Position numbers and translations under genes: made by a program
Notes under the pieces: model-generated
Told to the model about the DNA's origin: nothing
The model's input: only the letters and a program-made list of their open reading frames with translations
Databases searched by the model: none
IMG/VR virus record: IMGVR_UViG_3300032157_000006
Location: 1 to 64,000 of that record
DNA: 64,000 nt
Reading direction: 5' to 3' (one strand)
Origin: a virus
Shown here: positions 531-18,676 of the stretch, one piece after another
How positions within the stretch are numbered: position 1 is the first letter of the stretch
How the letters are laid out: every line of letters begins with the position of its first letter

Positions 531-532
531 CC

Positions 533-1267
533 ATGGGCCTGTTCAGCGGTGGCGGACTCCTGAAGGCGGGTGCAGCGGCTGGCCTCGCCTACATGACGGG
601 CGGCACGAGCGCCGCGCTCATGGCCGGCGGAAGCTCATTACTGTCCGGCGCCGCCGCGAACAAGGGCAACGCGAAGGCGGCGCAGATCAACGAGGAACAG
701 CGCGACAAGGCGCGCACGGCGATCAACACCGGCGCCGACACCGCGACCGGCTACCTGACACCGCAACTCGAGGCCGGGCGTCAGGCTTTCGACACCGGCG
801 CGGACTACATGCGCACCGTGGTCGCGCGGGATCCGAACCAGCTCACGCCGCAGCAGAAAATCGACCTCGCCGACCGCGCGCGCGTGACGATGAGGGGCAT
901 CAACCCCGGCCTGCGCGGCAGCGGGCGCTTCACCACCGCGGCGATCAACGACGTTGTGAACCGCGGCAAGGCCGGGATGATCCAGACCAACCAGACGCGC
1001 TCGGACCAGGCCGGCGGCCAGCTTTTCAGCACCGGGGCGAATATGTCGCAAAGCGCCGCCGGGAACCTCGCCAACGTGGCTACCGGGCAGGCGAAGGACG
1101 TGGCCAACATCGAAACCGGCTACGGCACCAACGCCGGCAACGCGGCGGTCGCGCAGGGGCAGGTGAACGCCGACACGATCGGGGCCATCGGCAGCGTGTT
1201 CGCCGACGCCATGAAGCAGGGTCGCAACGGCCGCTACGACGAGTACCGGGCAGCGTCGACGCAATAA
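533..1267 (+). CDS. hypothetical protein with Gly/Ala-rich hydrophobic N-terminus (possible internal virion/ejection protein)
   Basis: 244-aa ORF with ATG at 533. N-terminus MGLFSGGGLLKAGAAAGLAYMTGG is glycine-zipper-like; the body is Gln/Asn/Gly/Ala-rich. TAATG stop/start overlap with the next gene at 1265-1269. Confidence 0.7.
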   Translation: MGLFSGGGLLKAGAAAGLAYMTGGTSAALMAGGSSLLSGAAANKGNAKAAQINEEQRDKARTAINTGADTATGYLTPQLEAGRQAFDTGADYMRTVVARDPNQLTPQQKIDLADRARVTMRGINPGLRGSGRFTTAAINDVVNRGKAGMIQTNQTRSDQAGGQLFSTGANMSQSAAGNLANVATGQAKDVANIETGYGTNAGNAAVAQGQVNADTIGAIGSVFADAMKQGRNGRYDEYRAASTQ

Positions 1268-2616
1268 TGGGCATCGAATTCGCGCGCAGGAACCCAGGCA
1301 TCGAGTCCTTCCAGACGGGAATGACCAATGCCGGGCGCCGCCGGGCGCTCGACGACGAGAACTACCGCCGGAACGTCGAATTCGGCAACGAGCAGGCCAC
1401 CGATGCTGCGCTGCGTCAAGGGATTGGCGCCTACTACGCCGACCAGCCGCAAGCGAACCAGCCCGCGCCGCCGGGCGTCTCGGCCGCCGCACAACCAGTC
1501 GCCACGCCAGCGCCCCCGCCAGCCCAGTTCTCGGCGCCGGCACCCACCAACGTCGCGGATGGGTTCGGAGATGCGCAGCGCCTGCCGCCAGACCAGCAAG
1601 GCGCGCCGGCACCGGCGGCCACCCCGACAGGCACCTTCGCCACGCCAGCGGTGCGCGCGGCGCCGCGCAACACCGCCTTCGGGAACGCCATGCGGACGCT
1701 TGCGCGCGCGCCGGGCGGAGGCCGGACCATGATGGCCATGCACCAGCAGGACCAGCAGGGCCAGCGCTCCGACGCCCAGGAAAACCGCCGGCTCCAGCAC
1801 GACGGGCAGGTCCTGTGGCTCAAAGCGATCGACGCTGGCGACCTGCGCATGGCGCAGCACATCGGCCAGCAGTACGGGCTCCAGCTCCCGCCGGACATCT
1901 ACACCAACCGCAAGTCCCTGACCGACGTGAAGGTGGCCACCAACACGGCCAAGAGCCTCGGGATCACCGACGACATGATGGCCGTCTCGTTCGTCGATGC
2001 CTACGTCGATGCGCGCCAGAAGGGCGCCGACGAGGGCACGGCCACGCGCGCAGCCACCGCGGCGGTCAAGTCTGGCGCCAGCGGGCCAGGCAAGGCGGTG
2101 CACTGGGCAGTGGACGACGCGCACCAGGTCACCGGGTTCGATGCGCGCGGCACCCCGATCAGGACCGGCGTGAAGGCGCGCCCGCTCAAGCACGAGATGG
2201 GCGGTGGCGGCGGTGCGGCGGATGGCGCAGGCGGCTCGAAACAGCAGCAGTTCGCCAAATGGCGGATCGACACCCTGGTCGCATCCGGGGTGCCGCTCCC
2301 GGAGGCGCAGAAGATGGTCGCTGGCGGCTCCGCGAACAAGCCTGTGACCGGCGCGCAGCGGCTCGCCGCGGCGAACAGGTTGCTCGGGTCGACCGACAGG
2401 ATGGGTCGGAAACTGTACCCGGACCTGAACGCGGCCTTGAAGGCGATCGACTCTGCGACCAGCGGCGCGGGCGGCCCGGCGCCAGCGGCACCGCAACCCG
2501 GCGCGGAAGCGCCCGCAGGCGCACCTGCACCTGCCGCACAGGCCAGCGGCGCGACACCGAAAAGGCTCAAGTTCAATACGTCCACCTTCGGCCTTGACCC
2601 CGTAACCGCTCAATGA
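1267..2616 (+). CDS. hypothetical Ala/Pro/Gly-rich protein (possible internal virion protein)
   Basis: Track ORF 478..2616 has an Arg/His-rich junk N-terminus. Protein-like sequence begins at ATG 1267 (MGIEFARRNPGIESFQ...), overlapping the preceding stop. The 3' end forms an ATGA overlap with the giant gene. Confidence 0.65.
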   Translation: MGIEFARRNPGIESFQTGMTNAGRRRALDDENYRRNVEFGNEQATDAALRQGIGAYYADQPQANQPAPPGVSAAAQPVATPAPPPAQFSAPAPTNVADGFGDAQRLPPDQQGAPAPAATPTGTFATPAVRAAPRNTAFGNAMRTLARAPGGGRTMMAMHQQDQQGQRSDAQENRRLQHDGQVLWLKAIDAGDLRMAQHIGQQYGLQLPPDIYTNRKSLTDVKVATNTAKSLGITDDMMAVSFVDAYVDARQKGADEGTATRAATAAVKSGASGPGKAVHWAVDDAHQVTGFDARGTPIRTGVKARPLKHEMGGGGGAADGAGGSKQQQFAKWRIDTLVASGVPLPEAQKMVAGGSANKPVTGAQRLAAANRLLGSTDRMGRKLYPDLNAALKAIDSATSGAGGPAPAAPQPGAEAPAGAPAPAAQASGATPKRLKFNTSTFGLDPVTAQ

Positions 2617-5600
2617 CGATCGAGGTCGAACTCCACGATGGCTCCATCGCGGAGTTTCCTGATGGGACCCCGACCGATGTGATGGCTCGGGCGGCTGGCA
2701 ACTATGCCGGCCTGATGGCGCCGCCGAAACCGCCTGCCGCACCGCGCACCGCCGCGCAAGCGCAGCCGGTGCCGGGCTCGAGCTTCGAGTCCGAGATGAC
2801 TGGCTCACCTGTTGAGCCACTGGCGCCGACCAGCGTGATGGAGTCGTTCGAGGCGCGCTCGGCGCCGCCGATGCCCGCCGCGGTGCCGCCTGCCAGGCAG
2901 TTCACCCAGGCGCAGGGGCGTATGGATGCGGAGCGCGTCGTGCGCAGCAAGTTCGACACGCAGCTCTCGCCGCAGGAAGAATTCACCTTCGCCGAGTGGA
3001 AGAAGAAGTATGCGCCAAACGATTCCGGCGAGGATTACGACCTGCGAGGGGCGTTCAAGTCCGGCATGAAGCCTAGCGCCGACGGCCATTGGTCGGACGA
3101 GTTCAAAAAGCCGAATCACCCGACGTTCTCGAATCAGTCACGCTACGCAGCATTCGGCGACCCTGGAGAGTGGGCGGGGGTATGGGACCCGAAAACGAGG
3201 ACCTACACGCCGCCTGTAGGTCCGGACGTTTTCACACCAGCGTCGGCCAAGAGGCCAGCGAACTGGCGCAACGACGTCGCCGACAGCGCCATGGGCCGCG
3301 AGCCAGCACCGGCCGCGCCGCGCGCGCCGACCACCGGCGAGATCATGGGGCAGCAGCCGCGCCTGGAAAAAGGATCGCCCACCACCTTCGCGACCGATGA
3401 GGGCGGGGTGTTCGTAGGCACCCAGGACGAGTTCACGAAGGAGCACGGCAAGAAAAGCGGCGTGCTCGATGACGCCGCGACCTACCCGGACCAGTGGAAG
3501 TACGGCGCCTCGGCCGACATCGCGGCGGCGGCGCGCTGGCTGTCCCAGGTGGACGCCGAGATCGCCCGTAACGACGCCATCGTTCAGACCCGCAGGGTTG
3601 CCCTGCCGAGGGCTTTAGCAGGCCAGCAAGGCGATGTGGCTCGCCCGGCGAACCAGGCCGACATCGACAAGGCAAACGCAGCGCTTCCGATCCTGCGCAA
3701 AGAGCGCGATCGTCTGGAGATGATCCGCTCTGGCGCGGACCTGTCGTTGAAGGAGTCCATGCCGAAGAACCCGTCGACCGTGAGCAAGGCGGTGGGCTCG
3801 ATCGGGCGCAGCGCGGTGCCAACGCTCGCTGGTGTAGCCGCCGGCATGGTGGCTGGTCCTGCGGCCGGATTCGCCGTAGGCATCGGACTTGGTGCGGCGC
3901 AACAAGGTTCCGGTACGTTCGCCGACGTGATCGAGGCCGGTCGGGATGCGAAAGAGCGCCTGGCCACCTTCGATGCGCAGCCGGACCGCAATGGCTACCT
4001 GCAAGCGATCCTGAGCGACCCGAGCGCACCGGAAACGGTGCTCAAGTCGGCCAAGCGGGTCGCCGAGACGGTGGATGACATCGGCGCTCGCCTGAAGGCC
4101 GGGATGCTCAGTTCGAGCGCGGCGCGCCAGATGACCGAGCGCGCCTACGGGTCGTTCAAGCGGGACATGGAATTCATCGCGCGCGGCGCGGACGCCGGTT
4201 ACGCGAACGTCTCGGCCGGGATCGACGCCATCGCCGAGGGTGTGGGCGAGGCGATCGGCTTGGGACCGCTTCTTCGCACCATGAAGATGACCGGGCTCGC
4301 CAAGTCCGGGTTCCTGCCGAGCTTTGCTGAGGCTGTGGTCGCGAACTACGGCCAGGAATACGCCACGCAGCTCATGCAGACGCTGAACGCGCACATGCGC
4401 GCCGACCCAAACGTGACCCTGAAGGACGCGCTCGAGCAGGCCCACGAGGCCGGCGTAGGCGGCGCGCTAATGGGCGGCGGCCTGCATGCACCGCTATATG
4501 CGGCCGGTAAGGCAGCGGAACGCGCCGCGGGCGGCCAGCAACCGGCACCGACAGGTCGCCCTGGTGGACCTCCGCCACCTCCACCGCCAGCGCCGGGCAC
4601 CACTGGGGACCTCGCGGCCACGCTGAAGGACAGCCGGCCGCTCGCGGAGATCCGCGCCGAGCAGGCGCGCGAGCAGACGCAGGCCATGGAGCCGCACGTC
4701 GAGCAGGCCGCTGGTGTTTCATCGCAGCAAGAAATGCTAGATGGCGAGGCGAAGGACGGTATCGCCGAGGCCGCCGGGATCCCGAAGCGCGGCGAGCAGG
4801 CGGTCATCACCTGGCCTGACGGCGAGGTCGCGCGCGGCACGATCCGCGACGTCTACCAGGTCCCGCACCCGAACAGCGGCGATACGATGTCGGGCGCCCA
4901 GGTGGAGCTGGAGAACGGTCAAATCATCGACGTCACCACCGCGGACGTGAAGATCGCGCCGGTGCCGGTGGGCTCTAACCTGCCGAAAGACCCGATCGTC
5001 GTGCAAAGCGCGAGCGACATGGAACAGGCCCGCAGGCGCATCGACGAGGAACGCTCCAACGAGCAGATCATCGCCGACAACGACCGCAAGGCGCATGTCG
5101 AGTGGAACGCGATTCCGATCACGCTCGAGACTGCCAAGGGCACCGAGCGGCGCGACGTGAAGAACACTCCGCCGAAATGGGTCGTTCCGCAGATGCCTCA
5201 CGACTACGGCCGCATCAAGGGCGTGAAGGGGGCTGATGGCGATGCTCTCGACATCGCGCTCGGCGACAAGTACGGCAGCCAGCAAATCTGGATCATCGAC
5301 CAGATCGACCCGGCCACCGGAAAATTCGACGAACACAAGGTCTTTGGAGCGTTCGGCAGCGCCGTCGATGCGGTGCGGTCGTACCGCGCATCGTTCGCCG
5401 ACGACACTGCGCCATCACGCATCGGCGCCATCACGCACATGCCGCTCGCGCAATTCAAAGAGGAGTTGAAAACTCGCGACTGGTCGAAGCCGGTCAAGTA
5501 CGTCGAGCCCGCGGCGCCTGTCGCACAGGAACCTGTCGAAACTCCCGAGCAGGAAAAACGCCGGCAGATCGACGAAGGATTCGCGGCAAATCGCGCGGTG

Positions 5601-8600
5601 CTCGGCAATTTCAAGAAGGGCGACCGCGTGCAGTTCATGCAGGGCGGCACGTTCACTCAGGACGACGGATCGAAGCGCGAAGGTCGGCTCGTCATAGGCA
5701 CGGTCCAGTCAATCCAGGACAAGGAGCAGGGAACCGTCAAGGTCATCGAGGATGGCGGTGGAGATTGGTCCGTTGCTGCGCGACATCTCATCAAAGGAGA
5801 GCCAAATGTTCCCACCGAAGAAAAGCCCGCCGTTCCAGAAACGGGCGGCACCACCACCGGACCAACCGGCGGCGGCTACGTCAAGCCGGAGCTACCCGGC
5901 GCCGAGCCCGGAAAAGAAGAAAAGCCCGCAGGGGATAGCGGCGTTCCACGCGAAGGCGAAGTAGGTGTCGAGCCTCCTGCGCCGCCAGTCGCACAACCTC
6001 CGGTTCAACCTCCTGCCCCGCCAGTGGCGCAGCCGCCGGCACCGCCCGTTGCGCCCACGAAAAAGGAACGCTTTGTAGTCGACGGGAAGGTGGAGACGGC
6101 CAGCGGCAGGATGATCCCGGCACCGCCCGCGCTGCGCATGGAGTCCGACCGCAAGCTCAACGTCGACCTGAAGAAACTCGAAGCGTGGCTGGTCGAACAG
6201 GCGATCGACGAGGCCAAGGCAATCGGTAACGACCTCGCCGTCACGATGTTCGGCGGCGCGCGCGGTCGCACGTTGTCGCAGTCCGACAAGGACGGCATGA
6301 ACGTGCTCCTGTTCGGTGAAGAATTCCCGGAATTCATCATCAAAAAAGAGCCTGTAGTCGAGAAGCAGCCCAAGGAACCGAAGAAGCCGAAGGAGAAGAA
6401 ACCTGAGCTGACCGCGAGCGAGAAGCTGCACGGCGAGATCCTGGACGCGCTCGAGAACAACGATCGCGATGCCATGGGCAAGCTGATCTACCAGGACACG
6501 CCGGTCACCGACGAGATGCGCCCGGAGATCGACCCAGGCGATCGTCTCGTGCGCCTCGTGGTCAAGACCGAGGCGAAAAAAGACGTCCAGACCCGCCTGA
6601 TGGACATCGGCTTCAAGGTGTCCGACCTCCAGGACGTCACCGCCGACGATGGCACCACGAAGAACAAGGTGCTGCGCATGTCGGCGATCTACCGTCCGTC
6701 CAAGGACAAGATCGGTGATTTCGGCGAGAAGATGGGCGGCAAGCGCGCCGATGCGCGCTATAACCCAATGGACGTCGACATTAAACTATCGGCTGATGTT
6801 GATGCCGCCAAGGCGGTCGAAAAGATCATCGCCGCCGTCGCGAAGGACCGCATCGTCACCGCCGAGATGCCGGGCCAATCGTTCGGCCAGTTCATGTTCA
6901 TGGAAGCGCTGTGGCACCGAGCCGAATCGCCGGCCGATTACATCGCCAGGATGATTGGCGGAGACAGCAAAGCCGACATCGCGCGCGTCTACGGCAACAA
7001 GCCCGAGCGCATCGTCGCGCTGGCGAAGCAATACGCCGATACGCTGCTCTCGGTGCAGAAGTTGGTCGAAGGCAAGCAGCGCGTCGATGAAACGGCTGAT
7101 GCGCTCAAGAATGGACTCGCCATATTGAGAGAGGATGGGGTGGTGACAGGAAACACCCCTCTCGGCGTTGAATTTGAATCGGTATGGGGAGAATCGCCAA
7201 CACGAGTTATTGGCAGAATTAAGCATAAATTCTCCACGAACGAGGACTCTACCGACCAGACCAACCGCGAGGTGAAGAAACCCGCCGACCCGGCGCCGCT
7301 CGCTGAGATCATCAGGAAGGGAAAGGATTGGAGACAGGGGAAGGTCGTCACCAAAGAGATGTTCGAGGCAGCGTTCGGCTTCCGCGGCGTCGACTTCGGC
7401 AACTGGATGACGGTGGACGAGCGCCAGGCCGGCCTGAACTATGCCTTCGACGCGCTCATGGACTTGACGGTGCTCACCGGCCTTCCGGCGAAGGCGATCG
7501 GCCTTGGCCGAACGCTCGGTTTCGGTATAGGTTCGCGCGGTGTTGGGAATCGCGGCGGCCGTCACGCTGCGGCGACCTACCATCCTGACAACCGCGTCAT
7601 CAACCTGACCAAGACGCACGGCAACGGCACGGTCTACCACGAGTGGATGCACGCACTCGAGGATTACCTGCGCAAGTACAGCAAGACCACAATCTACGGG
7701 ATAAATCACACCGACAAACTGCGCGAGGCGCTACGGCTGAAGTCGAATATTGCCGCCTTGGAGTCGCGCTTCCGCGCCAAGCTGTCCGAGGACGCATCCA
7801 CAGGACGCGACCGCAATGTGCCGCCGAAGGAGCGCGCACTCGCTTGGGCGAACAACAAAACGCCGCACTATGTCCATGGCTGGTGGACGGAGCACTACGG
7901 CATTCGGGCGCGAACTACGTTCAACGCCGATGCGCTGGAGATGGATGGCGGCAAGATCAAGTATTGGGCCGAGCCGCACGAGCTGGTGGCGCGCGCTTGG
8001 GAATCGTTCACCTACGACGAATCCAAGGGTAAGACACCCTACGGCGTTGGCCCTCACGTCGCCGACGGCTACTGGACGAAGAAGTCTGGCTACGACGGCA
8101 CGGCCTATCCGGCTGGTCCTGAGCGCGAGTACGTCGTCACAACTATGAAGCGCTTCCTCGAGGCGCTGAAGGTCGACGATACTGGCGCGATCACGATCAA
8201 GGAAGGCGCGATCGACGTCATCGACCGTCAGATTGAGGAAGCGAAAGCCGAACTCGCGCGCCTGGTCGAAAACGTCGACAAGATCATGGAGGAAATGGGG
8301 ATCCGCCAGCACCCGGAGCAAAAAGACGGGTCGATGACGGAATCCATGTTCTATCACATGCGCAGCGGCTGGTGGCCGAAGGACAAGCACGCCCTTCGCA
8401 CGTTCGTCGCCCAGGCGCACAAGAAGTCGACGAACGAGGTCGATGATCTGCTGCTTCGCCAAGGAGTCGAAGATTTCGAGGCTGCGATGGCGCGCTACGC
8501 CGGCCAGCTCATCCAGGACTGGAAGGGCAAAGGACTTGACGATCGCGCGATCTACGATCGCCTTTTCGAGATGTACAACACGCAGCCGCTGCTCGATGTT

Positions 8601-11600: not shown

Positions 11601-14600
11601 AACGTGTGGTTGGCCAATATAGACGCGAAGGAGCTGGACAAGAACCTCGGCGCTTTCAATTTTGCAAGCACCGTCCACAACTACGTGAAACAGTTCCTGC
11701 TCGCCGTGAAGGCCGAGCGGATCGTGCAGCACGTGGTCAAGGGAATGAACGAGGAAAACCACGAGGGTACGCAGCAGAAGTTCGTGATCGGCCTGGAGAA
11801 CACGATGGAGGCCGCCCTCGACGATTTCACCGAGATGGAGTCCGTAAAATCAGGCGATTCCATGGCTGGATATTCATGGCGTTCCGTGCTCCAGCGTGCC
11901 GAACGCCGCGCGCGCACGGTGAGCCTCAAGATCGTCGGCACGAATAAACGCATCCGAGTGGTGCTGCCGCTGGAAATTATTCCCGGCCACGTGCAGGCGA
12001 GCTTCCGCAGGGCGCAGACGAAGATCGAAGCCTACGAGTCGGCGCTGCCGGCCAGCCCAATCGACTTCATTCGCTGGCAACTCGGAAAGCACTACGTCTA
12101 CAAGGAAGGCGGAAAGGTGCGTGTCGCGCTCACCCCGCCCAAGGATGCGTCCGGCGTGCGGCCGTTCACCACGAGCGAGATCACCGGGCGCGAGAACATC
12201 GTCGAGTACGACGATGAGGGGAACATGACCCTCGGCAAGCGCGATGATCCGTCCAAGCGCACCACGATCAACGAGTACCAGAACGGCGGCATCGACGCGG
12301 CCATCCTGAACATCTCCGGCACCACCGGGATTTCCATGCACCCGAACGCGAAGGTGAAAGACCAGCGCGTGCGTCACATGCTGATCGCGCAGCCGCTTGG
12401 CGACATCAATGAATTCAAGCAACTCTCCGGACGCATAAACCGTACCGGCCAGGTAGAGCTGCCGCTCTACACCTTCATCGGAACCGCGCTGCCGGCCGAG
12501 AAGCGTCCCCTGGCGGTGCTGCGCCGCAAGCTGCGTTCGCTGACCTCGAACACGAAGTCGGCCACTGAGTCGATGCAGGATCTTGACCTGACTGATTTCG
12601 TCAACCAGTACGGAGATGAAATCGTCACGCGCTGGCTGCGCGAGCATCCGGAGTACGTGGACATGCTCGCCATCAAGGAAATGCCGGAGAACACAACCCT
12701 GGCAGAAGCGGCTCTATCGGTGTCTGGAAAGATCGCCGTACTGGAGGTGGTCGACCAGGCGCAGTTCTACGATGAAATCGAGCACAACTACGCCGCCTAC
12801 ATCAAGGAGCTGACCGACAGCGGAGAAAACAAGCTGATCCGGCGTGCGCTGCCTCTGAAAGCCCAGGTCCTTGGAGAGAACGAACTGGGCGAGGGCGACC
12901 CTTCCGCCAGCTCACCGTTCCTCAAAGGCTCGTTCCTCCAGAAGCTGTCGGTGGTCACGCAAAACGAGGTGCCGACGAAGGAAAAGCTGCTCGCCGACAT
13001 CGCTGATTTCTACGAGAAGGCGCCTGCCAATACGCACGACGCGCTGGTGGCCGCGATCGAGGCCGAGCTGAAGGTTCCATACGACGAAGCGACCAGCCAG
13101 GTCAGCCGCCAGATTGACGACTACGAAAAGCAGCTCACCGAGCCTGACATCCCGGAGCTTGAGCGCCAAAAGGTCGACACCACACTTCAGACCATGAAGC
13201 AGAAGGCGGCCTCGTTCGCAGCGCGCAAGCAAAAGACGCTCACCGAGCTTCGCAACTACGTGCCAGGCAGGGTGATGATGATGCACATCGACGGCGAGGA
13301 TTACACCGCCGTCGTGACCAACCTGTCGCACCAGAGCCCAGGCGCCATCGGCCATGGCAATCCCTACGCGCCATCGCGCTTTCGCCTCTCTTTCGCGCTG
13401 AACGCGCCGCGCCCGCGGCTGAACCTCACGCTCGCGCGCATCGAAGCGTTCCAGGAGGGCGGCGCCAAGCTGCGCGGAGCCATGTTCGGCAACGTGCTCG
13501 GCGGCCAATACACTGAGCAGGCGCAGCGGCGCATGGAAGAAGCGTTCGATCCGACCAAAGCGAAGGCTGCGGGCGGGCGCGAGACGCGCTACATGGTGAT
13601 CGGAAACATCCCGTCCGGCTTCAACATGGTGCAAAACAAGGGTGAAATCGTCACCTTCACCTACGAGAGCGGCGATGAGAAGGCCGGCGTACTGCTGCCG
13701 CACAAGTTCAACCCGGCGAAGGACATCTCGGACTCGTTCCCGATAAAGGACATGAACGCGGGCGCCCAGTACCTGCTGGTGCCGCTCTATCGCGCGATCA
13801 AAGATGGGTTCCTCGAGGGCTACGCCGACTATGCCGAGTTCGTCAAAAAGGCGAAGGAAGATTTCATCGACCTGGAGTACAGCGGCGAGGATGCGTTCAA
13901 CATCCAGACCAACGGCCTCACCAACAATACCGGGGCCGTCACTCTGAAGGTCCGATCGCGCTCTACTGGCCTCGAGATCGAGATCGACAGCAAACTTGGC
14001 AAGAAGATCGCATCAGAAATGGTCGAGGACAAGCGCCTCCATGAGCTGATGGGAACCGAGTTTTCCAAGCGCAAGGGACAGGACTGGCAGGCGCGCGTCG
14101 ATCTGCAAAAGAACGATCTTCAGGAATTCCTACGCTACTTCGCCGGCAAATGGGGCCTGAACGTCCCGCTGCCGACGCGGGATCTGTACAAGCGGATCCG
14201 CGACACCATGGCGCGCCGAGATGAGGGCGAAATCAAGCTGATGGGCATGTCCGTGCCCACCGAACCGAAAGGAGTATCCGATGAGACTCGTAAAAAGGTT
14301 GACAACACTTCTGGCCGGCGCCTTCAGGCTCTGCGGCGCAGCGTCATGGTCGCGCTGCGTGACCGGAACGTCCCCGAAGGCATGTTCACGAAAGGTATTC
14401 TGCCTCGTGCCACTGCTGAAGGATTGAGGGAACTCGAGGACTTCCTCGGCATCACGGCGCTGCCGTTCAAGAACAACAACCCGGAAATCTTCGACTTCCA
14501 GGGCGCTACCCTGCGCTCAGACGGCGACGTGTTCTACATCAACGTAGACGCGCCGGTGCCGGCGGTTGCGCTCGCCGCCCACGAGGGGGTGCACCTCCTT

Positions 14601-17600
14601 CGCAACCGCGACGAGCGCCTGTATCAGCGCATGGTGACGCGGATCCGCCCGATGATGCAGGGGATGGACAAGTTCCGCGCCATGGTGACCGAGGGCCGCG
14701 GCGGCAAGGAAGCGTCCTGGGATCTCACCGAGGAGGAGCTGATCGCAGACATCCTTGCCGATGCGATGCTCGATCCCGTGTTCGCGGCCAAGCTCTACGG
14801 GCGCGACCCGACTCTGTTCCAGAGGATCTACTCCTACCTCATCAAGCTGCTCGACCAGCTCGGCCTGCACCTGAAAAAGCCGCGCTCGAGCCACAAGTAC
14901 GTGACCGACCTACAGGGCGCGCGCGACGTGCTTTCCAAGGTATTGAGCGAGCGCCGTGCCAACCCGCCAGTCGACGATGACACGGTGATCCGGTTCGACG
15001 CTGAGTTCACCGAGGCGATGCGCAAGGAAATCGGCAAGGACTTGGACGATGTGTTGAAGCTCATGCCGGCGCAGCCTGGCGGCATCAAGGTGATCGACAA
15101 GCAGGCCGGGCGCGAGGGGATGCTGCCGCTCAAGCGCTTCTTCTACAACCCGGTGAATGCCTTCCAGAAATTCCCGGTGATCGCCGCGCTCCAGCGCTTC
15201 GCGGTGCACATCGAAACCGATATGTCGAAGATCCAGCGCCGGTTCATGTCAGAATTCGAGGACCTGCGCAAGAAACTGTCGGACGAGCAGTGGGACGAGC
15301 TGGCTGGCGTCCTTTTCGTGGGCGATGCCGAGGCCGTGGAGTGGACTGAGGCCGATTTGCGCGAGCACGGCATCACCGACGACAAGGTGGTCACGGCCTA
15401 CAAGGAATTCCGCACCCTCATCACCAAGGTCGGGCGCCTGGTCGACATGCACCGGCGCTCGATGCTGCCTAAGTACCGCGCGCGTAAGCAGGCGCTGCTT
15501 GAGCGCATGCGCAGCTTGCGCAACATGACGGACCCGGAATTCCGTGCCCTGTACGGCCAGAGGACGAGGCTGCTGGCCAGCATTCGCGCGGGCGGCACCG
15601 CCACCATGAACGTCGAGCAGTTGCATGCCAGGCTCGATGCCGTGGAGATGCAGTTGAACGTCAAGCGCGAGGCGATGGACGAGTACCAGGACCTCCAGGA
15701 GCAGGTCGACCAGATCGACGCGATCTTGGCGCAGACCTCGATCCGGCGCCGGACCGGCTACGTCCCGCACAAGTTTTTCGGCACCTTCGCCATCTACCGG
15801 GCCCAGGAAGAAGAAGTCATCGACCCGGAGACGCTGGAAGTGGTGCGAGACGCCAATGGCGACCCGGTGACGCGGCCGATCAACGTGCTGGTGGCTGGCG
15901 AGCACGGCTTTTTCCCTACGCAGCAGGACGCGGTGGCGGCTGCGAAGAAGTACCTGGCCGACAATCCAGGCACCGAGCTGACCGTTCGCCCGGTCCAGTT
16001 CAAGTTTCCGAATTCATCGGCCACCACCCTGACCGATGCGTCCTACTGGCGCCTGCTCGGGCGCATGGGCAAGGAACTGGGCCTGCACGGGCAGGACCTG
16101 AAGGATGCCATGGAGGGCGTGGCGCGCCGCCGGTTCCGGCGCCGGATCGCCGGGTTCACCAAGATGCGGACGGGCGTGGAGGGCTTCAGCCGCGACCTCG
16201 AGCGCGTGATGCAGGCGCACTTGCAGGAGGCGAGCCGCTACGTCTACCTGGACAAGCTCAAGTACCGTGCGATCAACGACATGGAGAAGATGGGCCTGTC
16301 GCCCTTCAGGTCGACCAACCAGCAGTACCCGACCTTGGGGCCGATGGTGGAAGCGTTCCTGCGCGACATGAACGGCCAGAAATCGAGCGGCGAGGCCGCG
16401 GCCGACGAGGTGCTGGACAAGATGATGTCCTCGAAGTGGGGCTCGCCGGCCGTGATCGGCACCACCGCGGGCTCGGCCGCCGCATCGGCGCTGATGTTCG
16501 GGATCTCGACCAACCCGCTCCTTGGCCTGCTGGTAGGGTCCTACGTCGGGTATCGGTTCTACTCGTCTCTCAAGCACGGCGGGGAATTCAAGACGCGGGC
16601 GCTCACCGGCGACATGATGAGCGACATGGCGCACCTGAAGCTCGGGATGCTGCTGAACATCTCGTCGGCGATCGTGAACCTGACGCAGACGATGGTGAAC
16701 ACGCTGCCGGTGCTCAAGCCCAAGTACACGATGATCGGGTTCCAGAAGTTCGAGGCCGCCCTCAGATCCTATGTGCTCGGAAAGCCCAATTCCGACTGGC
16801 GGCTGCTCGAGCGCACGGATGCGGAATCCATCAACAAATTCGGCGAGCACAAGGGCGCCCGCGTGATTGGCACGGGCTCCGTGAAGAAGTTGTTCGACAT
16901 CCCGAAATCAAAGCTCGAGGGCCTGCGCTACCTGGAGAACGCAAAGCGCCTGGGCGCGTGGACGTCCATGCTCGCTTTCGATTCGGCAGAATCTCTCAAC
17001 CGAGGCGTGTCGTTCCTGGGCGGGTACTACCGGGCGAAGGACGAAGGCAAAACCCCCGGAGAATCCTTCCGCGAGGCCGAGAAGGTGATGCTGTTCACTC
17101 AGCACAACTACGGCAAATCGAACAAGCCGGAGATCATGCGCAACGTGTTTTTCCGCCTGCCGCTGCAATTCAAGAATTACGTCGCGCAGCAGATCGCCTT
17201 CACATTCGACATGGCGAGGAAGGCCGCAACCGGCCGCTCACTGTCGGAAGTGCCGTTCGACCGGGACGCGCTCGCCTACCACCTGACATCCCTGTTCCTG
17301 CTCACGGGCGCGATCGGCATGCCGCTCATCGGTGTGCTCGCCGCGATCATCAAGGGAATTTTCGACTACGACGTCATGGACGAGCTGAAGAAAAAGGCCC
17401 TGGAGATGCAGGCGCACGGGAAGCTCGCCGCATCAGCCGCGACCACCCTGGCGCGCGGCCTGCCAGCGGCTATCTTCGGCGAGGACCTGTCCGGTCGCGC
17501 TGGCATGGGCGAGCAGTTCCTGCCGTTCGACCCGTCCAACCCGTGGGGACCCTGGTTGGGCACGGTCAAGAACCAGATCGCGCTCGCCGAGATGCAGGCC

Positions 17601-18179
17601 GGGTTCATCGACCAGCTCCAGAACATCAGCCCGGCCGCCAAACCCTTCAAGGCGATGGAGGCCATGGCCAACGGCCTGCCGGCGCGCGACCTGATCCTGC
17701 GGCCCAAGACCTTCTTCGAGGCGCTGGCCGACGACCGGATCGACTGGACGAACCCGTGGAAGAACGGCTACACGGAGTACGACCAGACCATGATCTCCAA
17801 GCGCGACGTCATCCGCATGGGGATGGGCTCGACCCCGACCACGGTGTCGGAGCTGCGCGACGTCGAGAGGGTCGCGGTGCACGAGACGGACCAGCACAAG
17901 CGCAAGACCCGCCTGTACGTGAACCGGGTGATTGCTGCGGCGCGGCGCTACGAAAGCGACCCTGCCGAGCTGAACAAGGTCCTCGACAATGTTGCAGCGC
18001 AAATGGAGAAAGACGACTTCATGGTGTCGGCCAGTACCATGCAATCGTCCTACCGCAATGCCTTCACCCCGAGGGTGCTGCGGACCCTCAAATCGGTGCC
18101 GCGCGCTGTGAAACCTGGGATTGCGGGTATGATCGAGCCCTTGATGGACCGGCAAAAGCCAGAAGAAGCGAGGCCGTGA
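2613..18179 (+). CDS. giant multidomain 'polyvalent' protein (5,188 aa): PPase-like, two zincin HExxH modules, N6-adenine-type MTase, strawberry-notch-like helicase, C-terminal TM cluster
   Basis: Single open frame coupled at both ends (ATGA at 2613; TGATG at 18177-18181). Motifs read directly: DGDALD (5235), DFGEKMGGKRAD (6717), HEWMH (7638), DPTAGNG (8703), NPPF (8889), GVGKGRQ (10611), DESH (11151), QLSGRINRTGQ (12420), HEGVH (14580). Caveat: frame anomaly at about 9334-9666. Confidence 0.85.
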   Translation: MTIEVELHDGSIAEFPDGTPTDVMARAAGNYAGLMAPPKPPAAPRTAAQAQPVPGSSFESEMTGSPVEPLAPTSVMESFEARSAPPMPAAVPPARQFTQAQGRMDAERVVRSKFDTQLSPQEEFTFAEWKKKYAPNDSGEDYDLRGAFKSGMKPSADGHWSDEFKKPNHPTFSNQSRYAAFGDPGEWAGVWDPKTRTYTPPVGPDVFTPASAKRPANWRNDVADSAMGREPAPAAPRAPTTGEIMGQQPRLEKGSPTTFATDEGGVFVGTQDEFTKEHGKKSGVLDDAATYPDQWKYGASADIAAAARWLSQVDAEIARNDAIVQTRRVALPRALAGQQGDVARPANQADIDKANAALPILRKERDRLEMIRSGADLSLKESMPKNPSTVSKAVGSIGRSAVPTLAGVAAGMVAGPAAGFAVGIGLGAAQQGSGTFADVIEAGRDAKERLATFDAQPDRNGYLQAILSDPSAPETVLKSAKRVAETVDDIGARLKAGMLSSSAARQMTERAYGSFKRDMEFIARGADAGYANVSAGIDAIAEGVGEAIGLGPLLRTMKMTGLAKSGFLPSFAEAVVANYGQEYATQLMQTLNAHMRADPNVTLKDALEQAHEAGVGGALMGGGLHAPLYAAGKAAERAAGGQQPAPTGRPGGPPPPPPPAPGTTGDLAATLKDSRPLAEIRAEQAREQTQAMEPHVEQAAGVSSQQEMLDGEAKDGIAEAAGIPKRGEQAVITWPDGEVARGTIRDVYQVPHPNSGDTMSGAQVELENGQIIDVTTADVKIAPVPVGSNLPKDPIVVQSASDMEQARRRIDEERSNEQIIADNDRKAHVEWNAIPITLETAKGTERRDVKNTPPKWVVPQMPHDYGRIKGVKGADGDALDIALGDKYGSQQIWIIDQIDPATGKFDEHKVFGAFGSAVDAVRSYRASFADDTAPSRIGAITHMPLAQFKEELKTRDWSKPVKYVEPAAPVAQEPVETPEQEKRRQIDEGFAANRAVLGNFKKGDRVQFMQGGTFTQDDGSKREGRLVIGTVQSIQDKEQGTVKVIEDGGGDWSVAARHLIKGEPNVPTEEKPAVPETGGTTTGPTGGGYVKPELPGAEPGKEEKPAGDSGVPREGEVGVEPPAPPVAQPPVQPPAPPVAQPPAPPVAPTKKERFVVDGKVETASGRMIPAPPALRMESDRKLNVDLKKLEAWLVEQAIDEAKAIGNDLAVTMFGGARGRTLSQSDKDGMNVLLFGEEFPEFIIKKEPVVEKQPKEPKKPKEKKPELTASEKLHGEILDALENNDRDAMGKLIYQDTPVTDEMRPEIDPGDRLVRLVVKTEAKKDVQTRLMDIGFKVSDLQDVTADDGTTKNKVLRMSAIYRPSKDKIGDFGEKMGGKRADARYNPMDVDIKLSADVDAAKAVEKIIAAVAKDRIVTAEMPGQSFGQFMFMEALWHRAESPADYIARMIGGDSKADIARVYGNKPERIVALAKQYADTLLSVQKLVEGKQRVDETADALKNGLAILREDGVVTGNTPLGVEFESVWGESPTRVIGRIKHKFSTNEDSTDQTNREVKKPADPAPLAEIIRKGKDWRQGKVVTKEMFEAAFGFRGVDFGNWMTVDERQAGLNYAFDALMDLTVLTGLPAKAIGLGRTLGFGIGSRGVGNRGGRHAAATYHPDNRVINLTKTHGNGTVYHEWMHALEDYLRKYSKTTIYGINHTDKLREALRLKSNIAALESRFRAKLSEDASTGRDRNVPPKERALAWANNKTPHYVHGWWTEHYGIRARTTFNADALEMDGGKIKYWAEPHELVARAWESFTYDESKGKTPYGVGPHVADGYWTKKSGYDGTAYPAGPEREYVVTTMKRFLEALKVDDTGAITIKEGAIDVIDRQIEEAKAELARLVENVDKIMEEMGIRQHPEQKDGSMTESMFYHMRSGWWPKDKHALRTFVAQAHKKSTNEVDDLLLRQGVEDFEAAMARYAGQLIQDWKGKGLDDRAIYDRLFEMYNTQPLLDVRTSTVVMNQQYSTPLPIAYIAGVMGHVGEKTVGYDPTAGNGLLGITLNPKRFIANELDDRRYKNLTILETRAHHGDALETHERKVYKPQEADTVLMNPPFGLMTDPQKEDGYTIKRIDQWIAMSNLDAMADKGRAVLILGASRDAGVINQNELDFFHWLWINYNVVDHFEITGKLYARQGASWPIRVLVIAGRSPSKLPRPVSGAVDRLESRDDIWARVEKARDAAATPVAGGVSKRVVGAGKTVSRDGGQGKPGDVGVGVSPGVSGETGGRDAGAGAGIGAPVDTDVPGAVQPGELLPGGRGPGDVGAQPDGTSGVPAVEPGSIGTGRTGSGAPSGERAGGPDAIRDPIGGSGLTDQDLDDIFGDDAPRGPKKPKVRTKRSGPRAKAADPAKTNADDVTEAGGPMDQVNANSGDLVGAFDAIDAILNGRATAPKPFPQKKSGSSSRALVAAQHKTVENRVADQGEWWVSDLVDEVLVDAKPLLDAAPDSDVVFMGKQGPQIDATILQKLRPHFELIWKAVSEKAKAARDAAIAFRDLVVEKWGAKVLAYAKAFIVEKLRQVQAVGQKGPVNNAIENADQVFYQGLSQGKNEGVMIPRSQLEHSKRALAALDSRLRNQYPDGIDQFVKEMVGYESIAKMHEHLFGYQVDGVALQLDAMMTGKAFIVGDDTGVGKGRQAAALVVWAQKEGKIPIFMTAQDNLYSDLYRDMEGIGFDKPEWIQPSNTEWKVTNEYDEEMSSPGRGELTGNKLAVQMLKNMDGQAKPKKESKVPPASEPLTPENTAAAISELVENVKAAGEQENIDVDVSKVFPVKKRKALFTTYAQMQGPAGSTRRAVIERLVKAGKAVLILDESHKAAGESGVGKWLVKMTTDYAPPVAFFSATFAKRADSLPIYMRTDLRHVAPTVPEVIDTIVSGGPQMQVTISEMLVEAGQMVRRERSYNGIVPKFDIDENSEPVDARTMNEVTDRLRAILAANREFNAWAKQNKKQFQELVQGLFPENVWLANIDAKELDKNLGAFNFASTVHNYVKQFLLAVKAERIVQHVVKGMNEENHEGTQQKFVIGLENTMEAALDDFTEMESVKSGDSMAGYSWRSVLQRAERRARTVSLKIVGTNKRIRVVLPLEIIPGHVQASFRRAQTKIEAYESALPASPIDFIRWQLGKHYVYKEGGKVRVALTPPKDASGVRPFTTSEITGRENIVEYDDEGNMTLGKRDDPSKRTTINEYQNGGIDAAILNISGTTGISMHPNAKVKDQRVRHMLIAQPLGDINEFKQLSGRINRTGQVELPLYTFIGTALPAEKRPLAVLRRKLRSLTSNTKSATESMQDLDLTDFVNQYGDEIVTRWLREHPEYVDMLAIKEMPENTTLAEAALSVSGKIAVLEVVDQAQFYDEIEHNYAAYIKELTDSGENKLIRRALPLKAQVLGENELGEGDPSASSPFLKGSFLQKLSVVTQNEVPTKEKLLADIADFYEKAPANTHDALVAAIEAELKVPYDEATSQVSRQIDDYEKQLTEPDIPELERQKVDTTLQTMKQKAASFAARKQKTLTELRNYVPGRVMMMHIDGEDYTAVVTNLSHQSPGAIGHGNPYAPSRFRLSFALNAPRPRLNLTLARIEAFQEGGAKLRGAMFGNVLGGQYTEQAQRRMEEAFDPTKAKAAGGRETRYMVIGNIPSGFNMVQNKGEIVTFTYESGDEKAGVLLPHKFNPAKDISDSFPIKDMNAGAQYLLVPLYRAIKDGFLEGYADYAEFVKKAKEDFIDLEYSGEDAFNIQTNGLTNNTGAVTLKVRSRSTGLEIEIDSKLGKKIASEMVEDKRLHELMGTEFSKRKGQDWQARVDLQKNDLQEFLRYFAGKWGLNVPLPTRDLYKRIRDTMARRDEGEIKLMGMSVPTEPKGVSDETRKKVDNTSGRRLQALRRSVMVALRDRNVPEGMFTKGILPRATAEGLRELEDFLGITALPFKNNNPEIFDFQGATLRSDGDVFYINVDAPVPAVALAAHEGVHLLRNRDERLYQRMVTRIRPMMQGMDKFRAMVTEGRGGKEASWDLTEEELIADILADAMLDPVFAAKLYGRDPTLFQRIYSYLIKLLDQLGLHLKKPRSSHKYVTDLQGARDVLSKVLSERRANPPVDDDTVIRFDAEFTEAMRKEIGKDLDDVLKLMPAQPGGIKVIDKQAGREGMLPLKRFFYNPVNAFQKFPVIAALQRFAVHIETDMSKIQRRFMSEFEDLRKKLSDEQWDELAGVLFVGDAEAVEWTEADLREHGITDDKVVTAYKEFRTLITKVGRLVDMHRRSMLPKYRARKQALLERMRSLRNMTDPEFRALYGQRTRLLASIRAGGTATMNVEQLHARLDAVEMQLNVKREAMDEYQDLQEQVDQIDAILAQTSIRRRTGYVPHKFFGTFAIYRAQEEEVIDPETLEVVRDANGDPVTRPINVLVAGEHGFFPTQQDAVAAAKKYLADNPGTELTVRPVQFKFPNSSATTLTDASYWRLLGRMGKELGLHGQDLKDAMEGVARRRFRRRIAGFTKMRTGVEGFSRDLERVMQAHLQEASRYVYLDKLKYRAINDMEKMGLSPFRSTNQQYPTLGPMVEAFLRDMNGQKSSGEAAADEVLDKMMSSKWGSPAVIGTTAGSAAASALMFGISTNPLLGLLVGSYVGYRFYSSLKHGGEFKTRALTGDMMSDMAHLKLGMLLNISSAIVNLTQTMVNTLPVLKPKYTMIGFQKFEAALRSYVLGKPNSDWRLLERTDAESINKFGEHKGARVIGTGSVKKLFDIPKSKLEGLRYLENAKRLGAWTSMLAFDSAESLNRGVSFLGGYYRAKDEGKTPGESFREAEKVMLFTQHNYGKSNKPEIMRNVFFRLPLQFKNYVAQQIAFTFDMARKAATGRSLSEVPFDRDALAYHLTSLFLLTGAIGMPLIGVLAAIIKGIFDYDVMDELKKKALEMQAHGKLAASAATTLARGLPAAIFGEDLSGRAGMGEQFLPFDPSNPWGPWLGTVKNQIALAEMQAGFIDQLQNISPAAKPFKAMEAMANGLPARDLILRPKTFFEALADDRIDWTNPWKNGYTEYDQTMISKRDVIRMGMGSTPTTVSELRDVERVAVHETDQHKRKTRLYVNRVIAAARRYESDPAELNKVLDNVAAQMEKDDFMVSASTMQSSYRNAFTPRVLRTLKSVPRAVKPGIAGMIEPLMDRQKPEEARP
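5085..5400 (+). other. inorganic-pyrophosphatase-like segment of the giant protein
   Basis: IPITLETAKGTERRD...PHDYGRIKGVKGADGDALDIALGD...IWIIDQID..GKFDEHKVF follows the family-I PPase layout (YGxIPxT..DGDPxD..., then an acidic strand with DxK). DGDALDI deviates from the PPase signature D-[SGDN]-D-[PE]-[LIVMF]-D-[LIVMGAC] at one position. Confidence 0.35.
5973..6056 (+). repeat. in-frame proline-rich tandem repeat linker (PPAPPVAQ-type) inside the giant gene
   Basis: 28 codons read PPAPPVAQPPVQPPAPPVAQPPAPPVAP, an imperfect 8-codon unit repeated about 3.5 times. Confidence 0.8.
7330..8130 (+). other. zincin-like metallopeptidase module 1 of the giant protein (HEWMH)
   Basis: FGFRGVDFGNWM...GGRHAAATYHPDNRVINLTKTHGNGTVYHEWMHALEDYL, with HExxH at 7638-7652. 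Resembles the metallopeptidase modules described for phage/plasmid polyvalent proteins. Confidence 0.55.
8620..9200 (+). other. N6-adenine-type DNA methyltransferase domain of the giant protein
   Basis: SAM-binding motif I VGYDPTAGNGLLG (8703-8723), followed about 60 aa later by catalytic motif IV VLMNPPFG (8889-8900). Confidence 0.7.
9334..9666 (+). CDS. candidate embedded +1-frame ORF encoding a very acidic ~100-110 aa protein (or evidence of a frameshifted or split giant gene)
   Basis: Frame +1 relative to the giant ORF reads (MAVKGSPE)MSGSEYHQAFLEKLVDAMQAQGQESARQSILTFLEPFNRESYFPEDADLETWARNL... By hand count about 85% of its codons end in G/C, against about 40% for the giant frame, which here reads Gly/Pro/Arg-rich. 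Its TGA (9664-9666) overlaps an in-frame CTG of the giant frame (CTGA). Confidence 0.4.
   Translation, partial: SAAMAVKGSPEMSGSEYHQAFLEKLVDAMQAQGQESARQSILTFLEPFNRESYFPEDADLETWARNLTGLLAFPLSSPEASGPAELEAALQAVSAQEDLTLSEILSAGAA
10470..12560 (+). other. strawberry-notch/SNF2-like superfamily-2 helicase domain of the giant protein
   Basis: Walker A FIVGDDTGVGKGRQAA (10611-10628), DExH box LILDESHKAAG (11151-11162) and motif VI QLSGRINRTGQ (12420-12452). GVGKGRQ is characteristic of strawberry-notch-type helicases, which are often fused to MTases. Confidence 0.75.
14400..14800 (+). other. second HExxH zincin-like segment of the giant protein (HEGVH)
   Basis: DVFYINVDAPVPAVALAAHEGVHLLRNRDERLYQ, with HExxH at 14580-14594; downstream acidic residues (EEELIADILADAMLD). 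Confidence 0.4.
16436..17370 (+). other. cluster of predicted transmembrane helices near the C-terminus of the giant protein
   Basis: Hydrophobic runs: AVIGTTAGSAAASALMFGISTNPLLGLLVGSYVGY, LKLGMLLNISSAIVNLTQTMVNTLPVL, LGAWTSMLAFDSA, LTSLFLLTGAIGMPLIGVLAAIIKGIF. A possible PLxRFG-like motif is RLPLQFKNY (about 17150-17176). Confidence 0.5.
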
Positions 18180-18676
18180 TGGATCTCGAACTGCGTCTTG
18201 AGCGTGAAATTCCCGACGGCGATAACGACACGATCGGGTTGCTCTACCAGGAGCCTGCTCACGAGCTGCTGTGCTACATGCTCGAGGATCCGGTGCGCCA
18301 GCCAGCCGACTGGGTGTTTTCGGGGAACGTGAAGGATCCGCTACCGTGGAAGATCCCCGGAAGCACGGCAATACCTGGCGGCCGGTTCGAGATCATCATC
18401 ACACGATCAAAACGCCTGTCGGACCGCGCCGGCCACGACGTACTCACCCCGATGCTTTGCAAGGTGCCTGGATTCGACGGCATCAGGATCCACAAGGGGA
18501 ACAAGCCCGAGGACACCGAGGGGTGCCTGCTGCCCGGCATGAAGGTCGACGCCGATCGCGACATGGTGCTTTCGTCCGGTGTCGCCTACGACATCCTGTT
18601 CGACAAGATCAGGGCTGCGCGCGAAGCGGGTGACCGCGTGTGGATCACCATCGTCAACCCGTCAAAAGGAGATTGA
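18179..18676 (+). CDS. DUF5675-like protein (L,D-transpeptidase-like HxGN...GC motif)
   Basis: Only the last 165 aa of track ORF 16436..18676 are protein-like (MDLELRLEREIPDGDNDTIGLLY...IRIHKGNKPEDTEGCLLPG...). ATG 18179 overlaps the giant gene's TGA. Family assignment is from memory of the DUF5675 pattern. Confidence 0.6.
   Translation: MDLELRLEREIPDGDNDTIGLLYQEPAHELLCYMLEDPVRQPADWVFSGNVKDPLPWKIPGSTAIPGGRFEIIITRSKRLSDRAGHDVLTPMLCKVPGFDGIRIHKGNKPEDTEGCLLPGMKVDADRDMVLSSGVAYDILFDKIRAAREAGDRVWITIVNPSKGD

Follow-up and report, generated by a model that had tools for sequence, protein, structure and literature searches.

The first 64,000 nucleotides of the IMG/VR virus record IMGVR_UViG_3300032157_000006, analysed over their whole length and referred to as the window, are a podovirus-like tailed phage genome from a metagenome. 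About a quarter of this DNA is taken up by a single gene, 2613 to 18179 on the plus strand, whose product is probably a polyvalent internal-virion (ejection) protein in which a chassis, formed by the two ends of the polypeptide, carries a cargo of enzymes. The giant protein holds several recognizable catalytic domains, is a mosaic of chassis and cargo when set beside its relatives, is encoded at the end of the block of virion genes in an order that is syntenic with a related contig, and is free of cysteine. From this synteny, from the mass spectrometry of comparable proteins (PMC9144972) and from the absent cysteine, we infer that the protein is packaged and injected.

A single gene with conserved ends and an exchanged centre

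The region from 2613 to 18179 is one genuine gene. Its open reading frame (ORF) of 5,188 codons starts with ATG, has the terminal stop as its sole stop, and predicts a protein of 570 kDa with a pI of 6.3 and 0 Cys. It covers 24% of the window, and the initial annotation of this DNA was thus right to describe a single uninterrupted frame spanning about a quarter of it. With a stop probability of 0.029 per codon, taken from the ORF's own base composition, 5,188 open codons would arise by chance with a probability of about 1e-66, and the five alternative frames contain 32-181 stops each. Coding bias extends over the full length, as the G+C content of third codon positions (GC3) stays between 0.64 and 0.94 in all 250-codon blocks and is lowest in a Gly-rich linker. 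The proposed translational coupling to both neighbours is equally apparent, upstream through an ATGA at 2613-2616 (the upstream TGA occupying 2614-2616) and downstream through a TGATG at 18177-18181 (the downstream ATG starting at 18179), and the chain of overlaps spans four genes (533-1267, 1267-2616, 2613-18179 and 18179-18676). The motifs quoted for the protein (YDLRGAFKSG, GHWSDEF, the Gly/Ala stretch, the Pro-rich linker, DFGEKMGGKRAD, HEWMH, NPPF and HEGVH) were all found where they had been placed, and profile searches for the named domains put InPase, LPD1, AAA_34 and Helicase_C_4 over their Pfam cut-offs and PLxRFG over its NCBIfam cut-off. One ORF thereby holds at least two biochemically unrelated catalytic domains (InPase, zincin, methyltransferase-like and SNF2 ATPase), and the catalytic motifs are intact (DGDALD, DPTAGNG/NPPF, GVGKGR/DESH/GRINRTGQ, and HExxH twice).

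The protein, which is of metagenomic origin, remains the only member of its cluster when about 15 billion proteins are grouped at 90% identity, and megablast of its ORF against 50,697 phage records gave no DNA-level match. A search of bacterial genomes (185,579 species) matched one fragment of a metagenome-assembled genome only, and no host can thus be assigned. In sequence searches of the PDB, the InPase region gave the sole match, and the methyltransferase, ATPase and zincin regions gave none.

Comparison with relatives separates the chassis from the cargo. Three segments of the giant recur in the related giant P0002 (4,581 aa), namely aa 1-51, aa 361-968 (35% identity) and, on the C-terminal side, aa 4148-5185 (52% identity, E = 0), whereas the centre of P0002 is made up of a methylase of the Eco57I type and a helicase with ResIII/Helicase_C, which match P1 DarB. 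The complete relative L133 (2,755 aa) has the N-terminal part, the HExxH module and the C-terminal module without any methylase or helicase, L132 (at least 4,344 aa) combines InPase, an NPPF methylase, a strawberry-notch (Sbno) ATPase, HEGVH and the C-terminal module, and P0266 carries a PBECR1 nuclease domain as its cargo. At the level of sequence, the ends are conserved and the enzymatic centre is exchanged among relatives, and the same slot holds two unrelated methylase-translocase dyads, one DarB-type and one Sbno-type, in different relatives. C-terminal modules are themselves of two kinds, PLxRFG (the giant, P0002 and the LASTA and Parlo giants) and LPD38 (Bcep22 gp75, BS-TP4 gp3, L011 and L016). 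Comparison of the C-module profile with the LPD38-type C-termini of Bcep22 gp75 and BS-TP4 gp3 by hhalign found no relation, and homology of PLxRFG and LPD38 is therefore not claimed.

Cysteine is absent from all 5,188 residues of the giant, compared with a mean of 0.97% in 23 other ORFs of the window, which were roughly called and may include one or two spurious ones. The gene's two other forward frames contain 221 and 109 TGY triplets. The same absence is found in Bcep22 gp75 (0/4,602), LASTA gp01 (0/4,433) and Parlo 081 (0/3,764), as well as in the relatives P0002 (0/4,581) and L132 (0/4,344), and it extends to the 2-3 genes directly upstream of each giant (loci L002-L005, L132 and L134, and 533-1267 and 1267-2616 in the window). 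Among the proteins of T7, the ejection proteins gp15 (0/747) and gp16 (0/1,318) lack cysteine, compared with 0.5-2% in other T7 structural proteins. Absence of cysteine may thus mark proteins that have to exit a podovirus capsid in unfolded form and pass through the oxidising periplasm.

The position of the gene is consistent with this idea. Its two upstream neighbours on the plus strand, 533-1267 (244 aa) and 1267-2616 (449 aa), contain 0 Cys, each overlap the next gene, and are syntenic with the genes preceding the giant gene of the related contig L005; they are candidate co-ejected proteins. Synteny with L005 requires that the right end of the window be joined to its left, giving the order 58685-60571, 60575-61981, 62014 onward, 3-530, 533-1267, 1267-2616 and the giant gene, and this collinearity indicates that the giant gene closes the virion block. 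An ORF from 62014 exits at the right edge of the window and another enters at the left edge (1-530 / 62014-64000). Because the window ends adjoin in the L005 order and the source contig measures 66,127 bp, the genome is probably circularly permuted or circular.

The giant would be packaged into the capsid together with the two Cys-free upstream proteins, and at infection it would exit through the tail in an unfolded state, after which its terminal modules may interact with the cell envelope or traverse it. The methylase-translocase dyad could then move on the incoming DNA and shield it from restriction in a manner functionally like that of P1 DarB, DNA protection having been proposed for DarB-type dyads (PMC5512222). 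The InPase would remove pyrophosphate or a nucleotide signal, and the zincins would cut the polyprotein into working pieces or cleave host targets. The N-terminal chassis (about aa 1-970) comprises a leader, an 85-aa domain, a Gly/Ala hydrophobic domain and InPase, and the C-terminal chassis (about aa 3960-5188) a HExxH module, a helical region and the PLxRFG domain with two hydrophobic segments. The cargo lies between them and is composed, in this order, of the DFGEK-zincin-LPD1 module, the N6-adenine-type methyltransferase-like domain and the strawberry-notch SNF2 ATPase, with Pro-rich and Gly-rich linkers as joints.

Several points weigh against a packaged and ejected protein of this kind. 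The protein is a metagenomic singleton. An N-terminal lytic transglycosylase was not found (no SLT match in aa 1-1000), and profile and similarity scans of the upstream neighbours gave no similarity to known ejection proteins. The structural model of the C-terminal module is of low confidence and without a fold match, so that membrane insertion would depend on the two hydrophobic segments. The methyltransferase domain stays under the Pfam cut-offs in its own right (N6_Mtase E 0.14, MTS E 0.031), and no relative of it with a solved structure was found by PDB sequence search. P1 DarB has 9 cysteines, indicating that lack of cysteine is not universal for injected proteins.

Methyltransferase, SNF2 ATPase and pyrophosphatase are ordinary cytoplasmic activities, and the giant might accordingly be a multi-enzyme protein that is not packaged and serves DNA modification or anti-defence late in infection within the producing cell. 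This is unlikely, as its gene closes the block of virion genes and is linked to the adjacent genes by translational coupling, its PLxRFG domain is common to the LASTA and Parlo giants, whose annotated neighbours are virion structural or virion-associated genes, and its cysteine-free composition is shared with T7 gp15 and gp16 and not with the other proteins of the window. Bcep22-like giants, which have the same position and are not demonstrably homologous, were moreover found in virions by mass spectrometry (PMC9144972). A mainly structural role, as a tail, needle or tape-measure-like component with decayed or decorative enzyme-like domains, would agree with the NCBIfam model nickname 'tail-700', with the long helical C-terminal region seen in the low-confidence model, and with the label 'structural protein' that relatives bear in some records. 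Such a role is rather improbable, since the catalytic motifs are preserved and scans with Pfam, PHROG and NCBIfam matched no tape-measure or fibre family; that relatives have exchanged other enzymes into this position also speaks for activities under selection.

It is very improbable that the ORF is an artefact of assembly or frame that fuses several adjacent genes. The giant is known from a single metagenomic contig without a second copy, and its Gly-rich low-complexity stretch has a reduced GC3. Against this stand the negligible probability of a stop-free run of this length, the continuous coding bias, and the comparably long, uninterrupted ORFs of the independent relatives P0002, L132, BS-TP4 gp3 and Bcep22 gp75; both ends of the giant ORF, furthermore, match both ends of one P0002 ORF. 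The polyvalent ejection protein thus remains the preferred explanation.

A broader and tentative proposal, which we regard as possible but rather doubtful, is that the N- and C-terminal chassis of this lineage form a general protein-delivery machine for ejection and envelope crossing, into which recombination inserts any cassette. The cassettes would range from none to the DarB-type dyad, the Sbno-type dyad, PBECR1 and zincin-LPD1, and the presence of two unrelated dyads in one slot would represent non-orthologous replacement. The 85-aa domain would then be a new envelope-acting module at the position where other giants have a lytic transglycosylase, and absent cysteine would be a usable sequence signature of proteins passing a podovirus tail. 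If true, the chassis idea would offer a route to engineered phages that deliver chosen enzymes into bacteria.

Domains of the chassis and the cargo

The protein begins with a leader (aa 1-51, 2613 to 2765) that is 46% identical to the N-terminus of P0002. It is followed by a conserved domain of 85 aa (aa ~110-200, 2940 to 3212) with the consensus FDTxL..W..APNDSG.DYDLRGAFKAG...GHW.D.FKKPNHPTFS..S.Y, in which YDLRGAFKSG stands at aa 142 and GHWSDEF at aa 158. What had been described as a conserved-looking N-terminal motif is a true domain, as HMMER found 759 proteins with E<1e-10 among 1.84 billion cluster representatives. Homologs are typically 50-70% identical over about 85 residues, an alignment of 46 sequences has 23 invariant columns, and the domain occurs alone (90-200 aa), in tandem, or within proteins of up to ~4,500 aa. 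The copy in the giant has no Pfam or PHROG match. Across 189 word-indexed homologs the domain is likewise without Pfam annotation, one listed homolog carrying the unrelated PF00343. An AlphaFold (AF2) model of the domain is confident (pLDDT 85.5); Foldseek searches with it found no match in the PDB at E<=0.001, and the matches in BFVD were uncharacterised phage proteins only. Stand-alone genes for the domain are present on phage contigs of 42-50 kb, where their contexts gave no functional clue. In the giant, the 85-aa domain occupies the place that a lytic transglycosylase has in other giants.

The next conserved domain (aa 337-634, 3621 to 4514) is common to P0001, P0002 and P0004. The Gly/Ala hydrophobic stretch of the initial annotation lies inside this domain (aa 404-429, nt 3822-3899) and is thus part of a larger conserved unit. 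The pyrophosphatase-like segment is InPase, a type-I pyrophosphatase-like domain (PF18823) at aa 817-952 (5061 to 5468), with DGDALD at aa 875-880; it scores 108.7 bits against a cut-off of 26.8 (E 2.7e-31) and covers positions 2-134 of the 135 in the profile. This domain has been suggested to remove pyrophosphate or to process a nucleotide signal (PMC5512222). The sole solved sequence relative of the giant is a portal protein (PDB 9b41, chain L) whose C-terminal 130 residues are an InPase domain, providing independent evidence of InPase riding inside capsids. Two linkers follow, one Pro-rich (PPAPPVAQPP..., aa 1121-1148, 5973 to 6056) and one rich in K, E and P (aa 1244-1265, 6342-6407). The former had been called a Pro-rich repeat; the Pro-rich stretch is present, and Tandem Repeats Finder (TRF) detected no tandem repeat in the DNA.

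The first element of the cargo is a single conserved module (aa 1369-1860, 6717 to 8192) that consists of a head motif, a zincin and LPD1. The head motif DFGEKMGGKRAD (aa 1369, 6717-6752) had been singled out and is present; it is a divergent copy of DFGEK[IL]GGA[RK]KD. The zincin motif HEWMH (aa 1676, 7638-7652) is preceded by FGFRGVDFGNW at aa 1588, and LPD1 (PF18796, aa 1783-1853, 7959 to 8171) scores 30-32 bits against a cut-off of 27. By sequence conservation, these three parts, head motif, HEWMH zincin and LPD1, belong together in one module rather than standing on their own.

A degenerate DNA pattern for DFGEKxGG matched at least 120 IMG/VR contigs (L010-L129), every match being in frame, and nearly all matches continue as DFGEK[IL]GGA[RK]KD, though the final residues lie outside the pattern; a strict DNA pattern for DFGEK[IM]GGK gave 0 matches. 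In ORFs of 2,500-4,600 aa the motif usually follows after 900-1,400 residues, and alternatively it stands at the very start of a stand-alone protein of ~676 aa. The module that it heads measures ~500-650 aa, and the distance from DFGEK to the Pfam match of LPD1 is ~450-525 residues in four examples and 414 in the giant. Alignment of five modules yields the shared core FGFRG[VG][ED]FGNW ... VINLTK ... HEW[WFM]H[AG] ... YW..E..AR.[FW], with HEW[WFM]HA invariant in 5/5 and a conserved E in the LPD1 part. The reading of HEWMH as a zincin is backed by this alignment and by homology. The zincin part matches NCBIfam CLCA_X partially (E 5e-28) and is 42-44% identical to Stx phage proteins, and the zincin-LPD1 unit is ~33% identical to plasmid proteins annotated as 'LPD1 domain-containing'. 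Searches with aa 1300-1560 against plasmids and with aa 1150-1580 against phages gave essentially no matches, and no mention of the DFGEK[IL]GGA motif was found in the literature searched.

The N6-adenine-type methyltransferase-like domain (aa 1945-2212, 8445 to 9248) carries DPTAGNG as motif I (aa 2031) and NPPF as motif IV (aa 2093, 8889-8900), which are 62 residues apart, the usual spacing. It matches PHROG 6380 'DNA methyltransferase' (E 1.4e-7) and is 35% identical (E 4e-32) to a segment of BS-TP4 gp3 that itself passes Pfam N6_Mtase (23.8 bits against a cut-off of 20.4). The proposed N6-adenine-type methyltransferase thus draws on motifs, the PHROG match and the link through BS-TP4 gp3, and falls short of the Pfam threshold with its own sequence. 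The assignment of aa 1945-2212 as an N6-adenine methyltransferase is mostly indirectly supported.

A Gly-rich low-complexity linker (aa 2215-2400, 9255 to 9812; 20-23% Gly, GC3 down to 0.64) separates this domain from a strawberry-notch-type SWI2/SNF2 ATPase module (aa 2591-3702, 10383 to 13718). The latter had been recognized as a helicase of this type, in accordance with its scores over the Pfam cut-offs for AAA_34 (PF13872, 49.5 bits against 27) and Helicase_C_4 (PF13871, 65.5 bits against 30.5, aa 3188-3375). Walker A GVGKGR stands at aa 2667, DESH at aa 2847 and motif VI GRINRTGQ at aa 3273, and the module is 28% identical to BS-TP4 gp3 (E 2e-90). A search of viral contigs with the ATPase region for related loci returned no matches.

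The conserved C-terminal chassis starts with the second HExxH module (aa 3962-4119, 14496 to 14969), which contains HEGVH at aa 3990 (14580-14594) and a conserved EE ~50 aa further on. Both the HExxH and the downstream EE are kept in the alignment of the giant with P0090; L132 contains HEGVH, and L133 has HEIIH inside the segment aligned to aa 3976-5182. The second HEGVH module that had been proposed is therefore real in position and conservation, and it could not be placed in a known family, as no Pfam, PHROG or NCBIfam model matches it.

The C-terminal module (aa 4148-5185, 15054 to 18167) consists of a helical region, a small beta subdomain and the PLxRFG domain, and relatives are 35-52% identical to it along its entire length. 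The PLxRFG domain (NCBIfam NF032893, aa 4682-5149, 16656-18059) scores 128.5 bits against a cut-off of 100 and covers profile positions 206-661 of 681, leaving the N-terminal third of the model unmatched. The candidate for the name-giving PLxRFG sequence is PLQFKN (aa 4850), which agrees with it in P, L and F and deviates at R and G. Hydrophobic segments lie at aa 4613-4645 (16449-16547) and aa 4888-4922 (17274-17378); the cluster of transmembrane helices first described for this end is thus supported with respect to hydrophobicity, yet it is reduced to these two regions. The AF2 model of the 1,041-aa C-module is nearly all helical (pLDDT 59.8, pTM 0.34), and its Foldseek matches to ABC transporters and SMC proteins were discarded because of TM<0.1. 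The ~600 aa of coiled coil suggested earlier did not survive a crude heptad scan, which finds just aa 4331-4368; the region is helical only in the low-confidence model.

Genome context and neighbouring genes

Typical virion genes identify the window as a phage genome. They include a portal gene (45538-47811, phrog_156, E 1e-87), a major capsid gene (51518-52633, phrog_334, E 9e-71) and a head closure gene (60575-61981, phrog_578). The homolog of the latter in a related contig is 62% identical and carries Pfam Phage_stabilise (P22 gp10 family). The portal has a mere 29% identity to those of KPP25-like Pseudomonas podophages. No tRNAs were found in the window.

The gene coupled to the 3' end of the giant gene (18179 to 18676, plus strand) encodes a DUF5675 / phrog_1501 protein of 165 aa that has cysteines. 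No lysis genes were identified downstream of the giant gene, in contrast to Bcep22-like phages. An ORF on the minus strand (20325-20780) has a weak match to the uracil-DNA-glycosylase superfamily (E 1.4e-4) that stays under the cut-off. An insertion sequence of the IS1595 family (21555-23320) is present within the phage genome; it is bounded by perfect inverted repeats of 24 nt (21555-21578 and 23297-23320), between which a DDE_Tnp_IS1595 transposase is encoded (22268-23185, E 5e-45). The element has no obvious target-site duplication, and the surrounding region of 20-26 kb has a lower G+C content of 0.57-0.59. In the non-structural half of the genome, a 568-aa protein (32567-34273) has weak SbcC-like/AAA matches (phrog_77, E 2e-6) and adjoins a phrog_3657 gene (31292-32563); the two are a possible recombination or nuclease pair.

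The G+C content is 0.66-0.69 in positions 1-6000, which hold the upstream genes and, with the initial 3.4 kb of the giant gene, its N-terminal chassis, and 0.60-0.63 in positions 6000-18179, across its cargo and C-terminal part. This step along the giant gene is compatible with a mosaic origin.

Comparison with known systems

Polyvalent proteins of phages and conjugative elements were described by Iyer, Burroughs, Anand, de Souza and Aravind in 2017 (PMC5512222). Like the giant, they contain unrelated enzymatic domains in one polypeptide and occur in the context of phage structural genes, and both share the hallmark domains InPase, LPD1, zincin metallopeptidase and the adenine methylase-SNF2 dyad. 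Rare strawberry-notch-type ATPases in polyvalent proteins were already noted there, and packaging of the phage-type proteins and self-processing by their metallopeptidase domains were predicted (PMC5512222). The initial annotation placed the giant in this class, and the class-defined Pfam families InPase and LPD1, both over their cut-offs, together with the phage virion gene context, support this placement. The giant differs from the class in that its 85-aa domain, aa 337-634, HEGVH module and most of the 1,040-aa C-module are without a Pfam match. The PLxRFG domain was not found by name in the available text of Iyer et al. (PMC5512222), from whose main text 'transmembrane' is absent, and it occurred in annotation tables only in the literature searched.

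Bcep22-like giants measure 4,500-4,600 aa and take up ~22% of the genome, and their genes come last in the morphogenesis module (PMC9144972). For JC1 gp69 (4,515 aa), whose gene ends that module, 51 unique peptides were obtained from CsCl-purified virions (PMC9144972). Bcep22 gp75 (4,602 aa) and JC1 gp69, both of Lessievirus, resemble the giant in genome position, in genome share (~22-24%) and in polyvalent build. A BLASTP comparison with Bcep22 had been recommended as a check, and it yielded no support for a relation, as gp75 is without similarity to the giant at E 1e-3; gp75 has SLT, a DarB-type dyad and LPD3, and it ends in LPD38 rather than PLxRFG. LASTA gp01 (4,433 aa) and its Parlo counterpart (3,764 aa), both annotated as 'DarB-like antirestriction', share the PLxRFG C-terminus (NF032893) at 23-25% identity. 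Similar to the giant, they have 0 Cys and are last in the virion block after small Cys-free genes. Beyond the C-terminal domain neither of them aligns with the giant, and LASTA gp01 carries an SLT lytic transglycosylase in its N-terminal part as well as a methylase/helicase of the DarB type, neither of which is present in the giant.

The closest cargo is found in the Bacteroides phage BS-TP4, whose gp3 (5,391 aa, 'hypothetical protein') has InPase, N6-MTase and Sbno ATPase in the same order, at 27-35% identity to the giant; the gp3 gene adjoins the portal gene. The size and domain order had at first been left unmatched to any described protein; gp3, with its larger size and same cargo order, and L132, with its similar layout, correct this. 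The idea of a record-size protein was dropped for the same reason, gp3 being larger. BS-TP4 gp3 differs from the giant in its ddrB-ParB domain, its LPD38 C-terminus and its 4 Cys, and it is without the zincin-LPD1 module and the PLxRFG chassis.

P1 DarB (2,255 aa) is packaged in the phage head and protects DNA in cis against type I restriction. Like the giant (aa 1945-2212 and 2591-3702), it has an adenine methylase followed by an SF2 ATPase, a likeness that is best regarded as a functional analogy (PMC5512222). P1 DarB matches Bcep22 gp75, LASTA gp01 and P0002 at E 1e-46 to 1e-56 and has none of the giant's chassis; its comparison with the giant gave no phmmer match at E<=1 and no BLASTP match at 1e-2. 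The notion that the giant extends the methyltransferase and helicase pair of P1 DarB is thus not tenable in terms of descent, as its dyad is of a different, Sbno-type lineage. Giant virion proteins fill about a quarter of such phage genomes and what they do is deduced solely from the analogy with P1 DarB, yet the label 'DarB-like' is unsuited to some of them. Absence of cysteine, the DFGEKxGGxxKD head motif and the 85-aa domain are markers of the class and its modules that provide handles for annotating thousands of metagenomic phage ORFs.

The ejection proteins of T7 (gp14, gp15 and gp16) and P22 (gp7, gp20 and gp16) provide the established precedent. Like T7 gp16, the giant is the last, largest and Cys-free product of a gene run that follows tail and head-completion genes, and a P22-gp10-like (Phage_stabilise) gene stands two places upstream of its internal-virion-type run. 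Unlike T7 gp16, it is four times larger, is without a transglycosylase and without any sequence similarity found, and carries cytoplasmic enzymes. The class to which the giant belongs is already known from Iyer et al. 2017, from the work on Bcep22 and JC1, and from 'DarB-like' and 'PLxRFG' annotations. To these, the present analysis adds the division into chassis and cargo, the lack of DarB homology, the absence of Cys as a signature, the module headed by DFGEK and the wide occurrence of the 85-aa domain.

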